A stretch of 13,877 bases of DNA from a virus (taxonomy: Duplodnaviria > Heunggongvirae > Uroviricota > Caudoviricetes), in the IMG/VR virus record IMGVR_UViG_2671181033_000010, one strand, 5' to 3'. Each line of letters starts with the position of its first letter. Position 1 is the first letter of the stretch. Positions 3,001 through 5,187 of the stretch are shown here, in pieces. A program made the position numbers.

Positions 3001-5187
3001 TAGCACTGGCTTATAGTGATTGCCAATTAATGTCCCTATACCATAGCAGCACAAAACAAACCAAAATGCCGGACGGCCCTCACCACAACAATAGAGTGTT
3101 CCTGACGCACATGCTCCGGCAATTTGCATTCCAATACCAAAAACAAACGCACCCACCAGAAAAGGGATACTTATTGCTGTAATATTCCCAACCATCTTCC
3201 CGCCAAAAAAAGCATGGCTGAATGACAGGCAGAGTGTAAACAAAACTACCTCAAGAGCGATGGTAATTAAGTGAATCCTTACATAGTATGAGTTGCTCAT
3301 GGTCAGCATGTCTCTCCAACCTGCAACTATCCCAAATCGACTAAAAGACAATGTAAAACCCAAGAAAAAACCAATAATTGCAAGTACGCCCCACTTCATA
3401 CCAAAACTATTAGCAAGCCAGTAACTAAATGACAGCATGACAATAAAAATAAATAATATAGTTATGTTTTTCTGAAGCCTTATTTTATACATTTTTAATA
3501 TACCTATATGTTTCCACGTGATGCGCTGATGTACTTGCTGAAAAGGAATCGTTCCAGAAATGTATCTACGCAATATCCTGAACACGTTACCCAAAATGCC
3601 TGTTCCAGAATGATACTCACCTATAAATAACCGTCAATATGACGCTCAAGTACTTTCTGTGAGATAATGCAGCGAATTGATACTGACAATTCAACGTCCG
3701 TCATCGCTCCCCCAATGTGTTGAGGTTAGGTAGAAATGATAACAAATACACCACTCCTGCCCCTGTAACCTCCCCTTTTTTATACGCTCATTTTTGCGCA
3801 CTTTTTCGATCATCACGTATCGGTTTCGTTTTGCACGGCTGTTGCGTTTCGTTTTGCGCACTTTTTTTGAATTTTTTGCGCACTTTTTCCGGTGGCTTTT
3901 CCCCCTACAAGCCGCGTCATATCTGGCTTTGCTCTGCTGGTCTGTGTGATCGATTTTGTGATCGGTTTTATGATCGATTTGCGCAGTTTTTTGCGCATTT
4001 TTTCAGGGATTTTTCACCCCATTGAAGAGGCTTCTAAGGGGCTGTGAAGTGGGTAGCATTTTGCTGTGATGGAAGGACTACCGCTACTGTCTGATAATGG
4101 TGACGGAGGCCGCTATGTTCGGCTCTGATTGCAGCCTGCCGTATATTCACCAATTTACCTGGCTGTTATTTCCATAACCCGTAATGTCGCCGATCCCGTC
4201 TGATTCCCATATCGTCGACAGTCTTGTTTACCGCATCATGAAGTTCGCAAAATGTTTCACGTTTCTTTGGTGGACGCTTCGCATTCTCAAGGCATATCTC
4301 CCGCCGTCTGGCTATATGCTCTCGCTGCGGATCGGTGTGGGCCTCTTTCATCACGTCAAGCCAACGGGCGGCGGCTCTTCGCCATAACCCTTGCGCTTCC
4401 AGCTCTTCGGCTTTTTTATCTCTCGCCACTGATCACCCTCCCTGTTTTTTCTTTCGGGATATACCTGCGGGAATACCGCGCAAAGGGTCTTCTTTTCTCA
4501 GGTCGATCCCCATATCGTTAAGTGTTCTGGTCGCTGCCGCCCTGACGGCGCAAACATGCCCCCACTCTGTTGTTCGTGGTCTGGTGGCTTTTGCAGTGCA
4601 TTGTGCCCTTCGTTGGGTAATATAGTGCCTCTCTTCATCAGTTTTTGCCTGTCTGAACAATTCTCCCCAGCGTTCAGCAGCACGCCGCCAGAGGCCGCTA
4701 TTCTCCAGCGCTTCAGCCTTGTCATCACGTATCATCTGTACCCCGCCGATTCTGTCCTTTCAAAATTTGTCTTATGGCTTATTGTATGAGGGATTCATCC
4801 TACAACAAGAAAGGTCACTATGAGACTGACGCAATACAAAAAAGAGATCCTCAGTTACTTCACTCCTGACAATCTGGCGTGGGTTACAGGTGAAATTGGT
4901 AGTCCACCGTTTGATGTCTCCGGTGTGGCTTATCTGCTGCATGGCATGGATTCACACAACAACAGGTATCAGCTCGAATCAACAAGGCGCACGCTTGAAG
5001 CAATGGTGCGTGATGGTCTTCTTGAGCGGGTTAATGTGTATGAGCGGCGTGATAGCGTTGGTCATGGCGTTCGTCGAAAGGTGGCGCGTTATGGCCTGNN
5101 NNNNNNNNNNNNNNNNNNNNNNNNNNNNNNNNNNNNNNNNNNNNNNNNNNNNNNNNNNNNNNNNNNNNNNNNNNNNNNNNNNNNNNN

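Follow-up and report, generated by a model that had tools for sequence, protein, structure and literature searches.

A phased T-tract repeat module forms a conserved noncoding element in one family of Escherichia coli PICI-type phage satellites

The subject of this report is a cluster of T-rich direct repeats in a 13,877-nucleotide stretch of DNA from a virus (Caudoviricetes), IMG/VR record IMGVR_UViG_2671181033_000010; the whole of that stretch is called the window here. Judged from its sequence, the window is a satellite island of the phage-inducible chromosomal island (PICI) type from E. coli, inserted between yicC and dinD, and over the stretch tested it is 100% identical to E. coli 2013C-4974. 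Comparison with related islands identifies the repeats as the core of a roughly 280-bp noncoding DNA module, at about positions 3803 to 4075, that is conserved in one family of E. coli PICI-type satellites. We conclude that the family does possess this module as a genuine, conserved cis-element that had not been described before, although phased repeat arrays are a familiar kind of feature in mobile elements. As to its function, our tentative preference is for a phased, possibly Dam-sensitive protein-binding control region serving the downstream unit that ends in the gene for the antiterminator Q.

The repeats themselves are as an earlier, sequence-only reading had described them: four copies of TTTTGCGCA and three tandem TGTGATCGATTT 12-mers in T-rich DNA. 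Repeat tools and direct reading place exact copies of TTTTGCGCA at 3792, 3852, 3874, and 3989, all on the plus strand and spanning 206 bp, with no further exact copy in the window; a copy with one mismatch lies at 3977, and TTTTGCAC at 3829, read directly off the sequence, is a degenerate copy. In the 24.6-kb locus L001, taken from a complete genome, the exact 9-mer occurs 4 times against 0.77 expected, a count reached by 0 of 100 shuffles, and all of these copies are concentrated at a single spot. The motifs of the module are absent elsewhere across the whole island. The 12-mers run in the order TGTGATCGATTT, TGTGATCGGTTT, TATGATCGATTT from 3945 to 3980 (Tandem Repeats Finder [TRF] period 12, 3.0 copies, 87% matches), and each contains a Dam site, GATC, these lying at 3948, 3960, and 3972 with a fourth GATC at 3808; TRF reports additional period-11/12 arrays at 3852 to 3888 and 3978 to 4003. 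The strand asymmetry is also evident, the plus strand from 3791 to 4025 being 44% T, 12% A, 22% G, and 22% C. Moreover, runs of at least three T recur in phase, the periodicity peaking at 11.5 bp with a power of 5.6 against 1.35 ± 0.62 for dinucleotide shuffles, a value that none of 1,000 shuffles attained. Nowhere else in the window is a signal of this type stronger, and the phasing gives the cluster the promoter-type arrangement of A/T tracts in helical phase upstream of a gene. Finally, the motif is not the primase iteron motif, as had been stated: the primase iterons are about 13 copies of TGAGGCAAC disposed round an AT-rich stretch at 7320 to 7650, the PICI origin, next to the primase gene.

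The extent of about 200 bp given in the sequence-only reading holds for the cluster, but the conserved unit extends further right, to about 4075, and its most invariant portion is a non-repeated stretch, 3806 to 3862, rather than the TTTTGCGCA copies. We defined the borders of the module from alignments of 13 islands. The leftmost unit, TTTTGCGCACTTTTT (3792 to 3806, plus strand), is variable or dispensable, with TTTGCGCGC in its place in some islands; the leftmost TTTTGCGCAC copy (3792) is missing from three islands (L006, L007, and L036), and the left set holds 0 or 1 TGCGCA unit. It is followed by the nearly invariant plus-strand core TCGATCATCRCGTATCGGTTTCGTTTTGCRC..CTGTTGCGTTTCGTTTT (also written TCGATCATCRCGTATCGGTTTCGTTTTGC..CTGTTGCGTTTCGTTTT; 3806 to 3862), recognized by alignments and repeat search, which holds an inverted Dam hexamer, TCGATCA (TGATCGA on the minus strand), and two copies of GTTTCGTTTTGC, at 3823 and 3846. 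The middle 11-bp units, each a T-tract plus TGCGCA, occupy 3852 to 3888 on the plus strand and occur in 1 to 3 copies and two allelic forms in relatives. A conserved, non-repeated spacer with no strand assigned, CCGGTGG..CCCCCTRYAAGCCGCGTC..CTGGCTTTG.., is apparent from the alignments at 3889 to 3944 and leads to the tandem 12-mers (3945 to 3980, plus strand; consensus T-R-TGATCG-R-TTT), of which relatives have 3 to 5 copies. The right set of 11-bp TTTGCGCA units (3977 to 4003, plus strand) numbers 1 to 3 copies in relatives, and its adjacent copies in the window create a terminator-like hairpin followed by T6 on the plus strand. Two more phased T-tract units, TTTTTCAGGGA and TTTTTCACCCC, lie at 4004 to 4041 and are assigned to the minus strand, where RNA hairpins are predicted (GGGGUGAAAAAUCCC at 4020 to 4006 and CCCC..GGGG at 4041 to 4017). 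The conserved right border, CTGTGAAGTGGGTAGCATTTTGCTGTGATGGAAG, runs from 4042 to 4075, again with no strand assigned, and homology with several islands stops here. A hidden protein-coding gene was considered and rejected: homologues differ by indels of 1, 10, 11, and 22 nucleotides, which rules out a conserved reading frame. The PGAP annotation of the region is inconsistent across records. Several resemblances noticed by eye (the MOBQ nic site AAGTGCGC, the XerC arm GTGCGCA, the CRP half-site TGTGATC, and the lambda cosB R sites) were too short to be given weight.

The sequence-only reading had pointed to a motif search in related elements, and this search was productive. BLAST at settings for distant similarity found the module, at 75 to 100% identity, in 118 of the 5426 complete E. 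coli genomes, with many matches beginning at window position 3793 and finishing at 4075 or 4100. A pattern scan of metagenomes added eight contigs, all with near-identical copies, and a scan of IMG/VR gave one E. coli-type contig with the module. The 26 matches from a pattern scan of species-representative genome contigs included none in Enterobacteriaceae and were taken as chance. No homologue of the module was found in phages (50,697 records, searched at an E value of ≤10 with the BLAST low-complexity filter on) or in plasmids (72,556 records), even at permissive thresholds, and the Rfam 15 covariance models yielded no match to the module, only sub-threshold snoRNA noise. The module thus appears, on present sequence collections, confined to E. 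coli-like genomes, and the available divergence is for that reason too shallow for strong evolutionary tests, a test of covariation included.

Within the family, all 91 of the 91 TGCGCA-type units keep the TGCGC core unchanged, as do 52 of 53 12-mers their TGATCG. Copy number changes by whole units, and the length of the module goes through steps of 193, 204, 216, and 240 bp, each step about one helical turn. Both flanks of the module are exchanged for unrelated sequence between islands, and cargo enters on either side but never inside; on the right, the alternatives are PerC genes, a plus-strand hypothetical gene, or restriction-modification-like cargo. The orientation of the module and its placement upstream of a small open reading frame (ORF) are fixed in 11 of the 13 islands, with an annotated Q in 10 of those 11 (all but L003). 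The module stands between the replication/ProQ/PerC block and a distal unit made up of a leader, a 53-aa ORF, and Q.

This arrangement is at odds with the proposed link between the repeats and the YeeE-like gene. Eleven of the 13 related islands have no YeeE, and the module there precedes the leader, the conserved small ORF, and the Q antiterminator gene (PF06530; 1680 to 2078 in the window, minus strand), which is its conserved downstream partner. The leader, from the module to the start of the small ORF (3705 to 3791, minus strand), is variable: in the window type it has an extended −10-like element, TGTTATCAT (3744 to 3736), and a GGGGGAG Shine-Dalgarno sequence, and in relatives it is 60 to 190 bp long and comes in at least three unrelated variants, the −10-like element being limited to the window type. 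The small ORF of the relatives encodes 53 to 63 aa, beginning MT(E/D)RSPTEIIHGIIEEQEERELILMIEEQ..., with 32 invariant residues among the first 42 positions and a good Shine-Dalgarno sequence, and some 500 bp of mosaic sequence separate it from Q. In one such spacer (L040, 3242 to 3738), the mosaic consists of short pieces common to many lambdoid prophages, with matches in 1429 genomes; fragments of KilA-N and of lysis genes are among them, along with several hairpins. In the window and O157 islands, YeeE cargo supplants the small ORF after codon 3, and Q lies further downstream. The remnant in the window (3621 to 3704, minus strand, with its ATG at 3704) would encode a 27-aa product having just MTD in common with the conserved protein, and the junction with the cargo falls within it. 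YeeE (2356 to 3594, minus strand) is preceded by a promoter-like site, TTGACG-16-TATCAT, at 3637 to 3610 (score 12.6 against a background 90th percentile of 11.2), and the comparison indicates that it is a later cargo insertion with its own predicted promoter. Because YeeE has replaced the small ORF and has a promoter-like site of its own, the module is to be associated with the small-ORF/Q unit and not with YeeE. The Q gene of these islands has about 85% nucleotide identity to Q of Stx1- and Stx2-converting phages (VT1-Sakai and Stx2 phage 86), with similarity ending at the gene borders, and a satellite Q of the helper type could act on helper late promoters.

Of the earlier suggestions on function, a promoter array for YeeE is not supported, while a protein-binding regulatory array is retained as the best reading, with the provisional standing given above. 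The module would then be a DNA-level nucleoprotein platform gating transcription that enters or starts at the Q unit. Its invariant core would be flanked by the helically phased T-tracts, at about 11.5 bp, which would present two palindrome-cored unit types, TGCGCA and TGATCG. A small protein encoded by the island or the helper might bind these units cooperatively, the neighboring PerC-family proteins being the first candidates, and methylation or replication state could influence occupancy through the four or five Dam GATC sites. We infer protein binding, the nature of the binder, and the regulatory output from the arrangement of the site. PerC/Pch proteins are reported to bind low-GC DNA inside H-NS-bound regions and to relieve silencing (PMC4764244). 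A need for control at this position may be illustrated by L006, where a long minus-strand hairpin followed by T6 precedes the module by about 25 bp (read by eye, as it exceeds the loop limit of our scanner); should transcription stop at this hairpin, the Q unit of L006 must either have a start of its own or be entered in a regulated way.

Comparison with known systems is instructive in this respect. In a capsid-forming PICI (EcCIEDL933 family) that shares the primase-SSB-ProQ block, the equivalent position is occupied by a terminator and then three GTTGTTC repeats at a spacing of about 11 bp, ahead of the late operon. The sequences are unrelated to the module, and the late operon there consists of capsid and terminase genes, whereas a small ORF and Q lie downstream of the module. 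L055 (E. coli AST240, 5027 to 7689), a capsid-forming PICI, has the primase-SSB-ProQ/FinO block in common with the island family and HK97-type capsid and terminase genes in place of the PerC genes, the repeat module, and Q. Other mobile-element arrays of direct repeats with a period of about one turn, of iteron, operator, or centromere type, such as PICI origin iterons and the 11-bp repeats of R1 parC, resemble the module in having variable copy number, a single site, and conserved cores. The module differs from them in combining two unrelated unit types with an invariant unique core, in having no ParR/ParM- or Rep-type partner gene, in lying off the origin, and in having a motif other than that of the island iterons. 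Dam-dependent control regions are familiar from Mu mom, agn43, gtr, and pap, and the module is like these in having three to five closely spaced GATCs upstream of a tightly gated gene; no OxyR- or Lrp-type consensus was recognized in it by eye. The more specific proposal that the module is a switch sensing Dam methylation or replication, in which over-replication after induction of the satellite would leave GATCs hemimethylated or unmethylated, change occupancy, and so open transcription into Q, strikes us as quite improbable. If it were true, the satellite could time its takeover of helper late genes and possibly stx expression.

Several observations weigh against a protein-binding control region for Q. 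Because the related loci were picked up by their resemblance to the module, the argument from constancy among them is in part circular, and a viral contig with ProQ/PerC (L054) has no module within 8.7 kb. Whole-unit indels are a normal product of replication slippage, and preserved phasing need not mean selection. With regard to promoters, a position weight matrix for sigma-70 found none above background within the module on either strand in the 13 islands (best scores 6 to 8 against a background best of 8.7 ± 1.9), and no −10 element of the leader is conserved among islands. No module-binding protein was identified. The PerC genes are the usual right-hand neighbors, but L007 has none next to its module and carries the restriction-modification-like cargo instead, and the GC content of the module, 42 to 48%, is atypical of H-NS targets.

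The same stretch could instead function as RNA, which we consider unlikely yet deserving of real weight. The module would then be an A-rich leader or intercistronic RNA transcribed from the minus strand and acting by structure or protein binding, whether as a processing or stability hairpin, as a platform for Rho, Hfq, or ProQ/FinO, or as a nut-like antitermination site toward Q. The minus-strand fold is indeed more stable than expected (z = −2.54, a stability matched by 0 of 100 shuffles, against z = −0.83 for the plus strand), and the window has no minus-strand terminator from PerC to the module. The hairpin at 4041 to 4017 is paired in 90.7% of alignment cells, against at most 69% when partners are slid, and the substitutions in it, all of them U-A, U-G, or C-G steps, are viable on the minus strand only; however, its shuffle control is not significant (430 of 500 reach the observed value), the RNAalifold covariation term is about 0 with 1 of 45 pairs compensated, Rfam offers no match, and changes in unit number of 11 to 12 nucleotides would remodel any extended fold. 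The ProQ/FinO+SSB block is nearly as frequent as the module (116 against 118 genomes), but L007 keeps the module while lacking ProQ. The likeness to lambda nut is a similarly mixed case. GGGGUGAAAAAUCCC, a hairpin of the predicted minimum-energy fold, shares with lambda boxB the GAAAA pentaloop and closing U-A pair, and its place upstream of Q recalls that of nutR ahead of the early right operon, whereas the island has no N gene and the window has no match to boxA (YGCTCTTWA); the hairpin could be a by-product of the 11-nucleotide periodic pattern. A nut site of the N system of the Stx1 phage was rejected, as the boxBs of that phage, whose Q is related, are unrelated phi21-type hairpins, and the Esr41 and Pas small RNAs of enterohemorrhagic E. 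coli are encoded elsewhere and are unrelated to the island. A packaging site, also among the earlier suggestions, is in our estimate distinctly unlikely. Here, helper terminase or an island factor would recognize the repeats and bent DNA of a pac-like site and start encapsidation of the replicated island. In its favor, every GATC of the module lies in a hexamer TGATCG (one inverted at 3806 and three to five direct from 3947) and TGATCA/G is the element flanking the Dam-controlled cleavage site of P1 pac; the Icd-like and AntA/B genes of these islands have P1-type relatives as well. Binding sites for the small terminase subunit (TerS) typically combine phased A/T tracts and short repeats, and the module shows this general resemblance; no other packaging signal or gene was recognizable in the island. 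Nevertheless, P1 pac, with its TGATC(A/G) clusters of 4 and 3 irregularly spaced hexamers on two sides of a central region, embedded in pacA, has an annotated IHF site and mapped cleavage sites, and the module, with one inverted and three to five direct hexamers at exact 12-bp spacing, differs in pattern, has no pacAB, and shows no sequence similarity to it. A copy of a helper signal of at least about 20 nucleotides should have appeared in the phage search described above, run with the low-complexity filter on, and nothing alike was found. Lambda cosN is absent, GGGCGGCGACCT occurring only as a two-mismatch hit at 12226, far from the module and attributable to chance (114 of 200 shuffles give at least one); comparison with the VT1-Sakai cos region and with capsid-forming PICI sequence gave nothing beyond chance; and no TerS or Rpp turned up among the island proteins in sequence searches of Pfam, PHROGs, and PDB. 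The companion suggestion of a partition site has no supporting gene.

We regard as improbable the possibility that the module is a polar terminator or insulator array, in which pairs of TGCGCA units with T-runs would stop antisense transcription on the plus strand into the PerC and replication genes or end an antisense RNA. Such an array would account for the T-rich strand bias, and terminator-like hairpins with T-runs occur on the plus strand only, at 3980 to 4003 and 3843 to 3866 of the window, and number up to five within the module in relatives, these being part of 9 such sites against 2.6 expected in the 1.65-kb region scanned. The stems are short, 6 to 7 bp, however, no plus-strand promoter is conserved upstream, and the invariant core and the GATC 12-mers are left unexplained; furthermore, the plus-strand hairpin and U-run, present in the window and most relatives, are absent from single-unit islands such as L008. 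A comparably low probability attaches to the module having no dedicated function, as a slippage-prone low-complexity spacer or a relic carried along with the island. The copy-number changes are of the slippage type, the nucleotide identity of the module (81 to 91%) is no higher than that of neighboring genes (86 to 100% for SSB), and searches for a partner protein, a promoter, or an RNA family brought none to light. Against mere carriage stand the retention of the module while both of its flanks are swapped, with cargo on either side of it and never within, the invariance of the unit cores, and the near invariance of the 57-bp core across variants that are 10 to 25% different elsewhere. Least probable of all is a second origin or a cis-replication region comparable to P4 crr. 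Two repeat sets flanking a GATC-rich stretch loosely recall the 13-mers of oriC, and the island encodes its own primase-helicase and SSB, but the canonical PICI origin adjoins the primase gene and uses other iterons, the module lies 3.3 kb from the origin at 7320 to 7650 and holds none of its iterons, and no DnaA 9-mer box was seen in it by eye. The module of the O157 island is 87 to 99% identical across its parts, even though the primase there shares only aa 1 to 140 and the origin uses TGTTCACC iterons, and the primase origin was rejected for the module on the same grounds of different iterons and a different initiator. In that O157:H7 island (L002, 12597 to 12840), the origin consists of TGTTCACC/GGTGAACA iterons, which we take to be the P4 type I iteron sequence, and the N-terminal 140 aa of its otherwise different primase are common with the DUF927 protein of the window. 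An integrase attachment arm was likewise rejected: the intact island L041 has Int-type GTGTACAC/GGGTACAC repeats at both ends, and the module, which has none of these, lies about 2.2 kb inside and so is not an att arm. The module is independent of the replication initiator, of att, and of cos.

The remainder of the island provides the setting for these results. In the window, the DUF927 primase gene (7662 to 9800), the SSB and ProQ/FinO protein genes of the replication block, and the PerC-family genes (4433 to 4735 and 4166 to 4429) are all on the minus strand, and in L041 the integrase gene, an AlpA-like helix-turn-helix gene, and all remaining genes but one share one orientation. In L001 (NZ_CP027587), inverted IS3 copies at 7204 to 8417 and 22117 to 23330 bracket the window region, and dinD is in two inverted pieces, a layout that implies an IS3-mediated inversion parting int and alpA from the other island genes. 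At about 5100 to 5224 of the window, an N run followed by 37 G marks an assembly gap with a poly-G artifact that is absent from CP027587; the gap inflates an ORF at 4820 to 5284 to 154 aa, the real gene having 128 aa. A minus-strand hairpin at 5360 to 5425, ACCCTGAAT..ATTCAGGGT followed by T6, is a long intrinsic terminator closing the primase-SSB-ProQ-PerC operon, and this element recurs directly upstream of the module in L006. Between the third PerC gene and a strong minus-strand terminator, four tandem repeats of about 60 to 65 nucleotides, each with a small palindrome of the CTTCAATTGC type, occupy 5381 to 5610; they may be a structured noncoding RNA array and a candidate partner of the island ProQ/FinO protein.

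The island family that carries the module is common in Shiga-toxin-producing E. coli (STEC), including O157:H7, O111, and O145, and its Q is a close relative of the Stx-phage antiterminator responsible for transcription of the late genes and stx. As the module is the only conserved noncoding element between the replication/PerC block and Q, it is the obvious candidate for a switch timing the satellite Q. Should it prove inert, the module would still be a useful sequence marker and cargo-hotspot boundary in the family. Defining it would give a handle on satellite-helper timing in STEC and on the control of PICIs that are without packaging genes.

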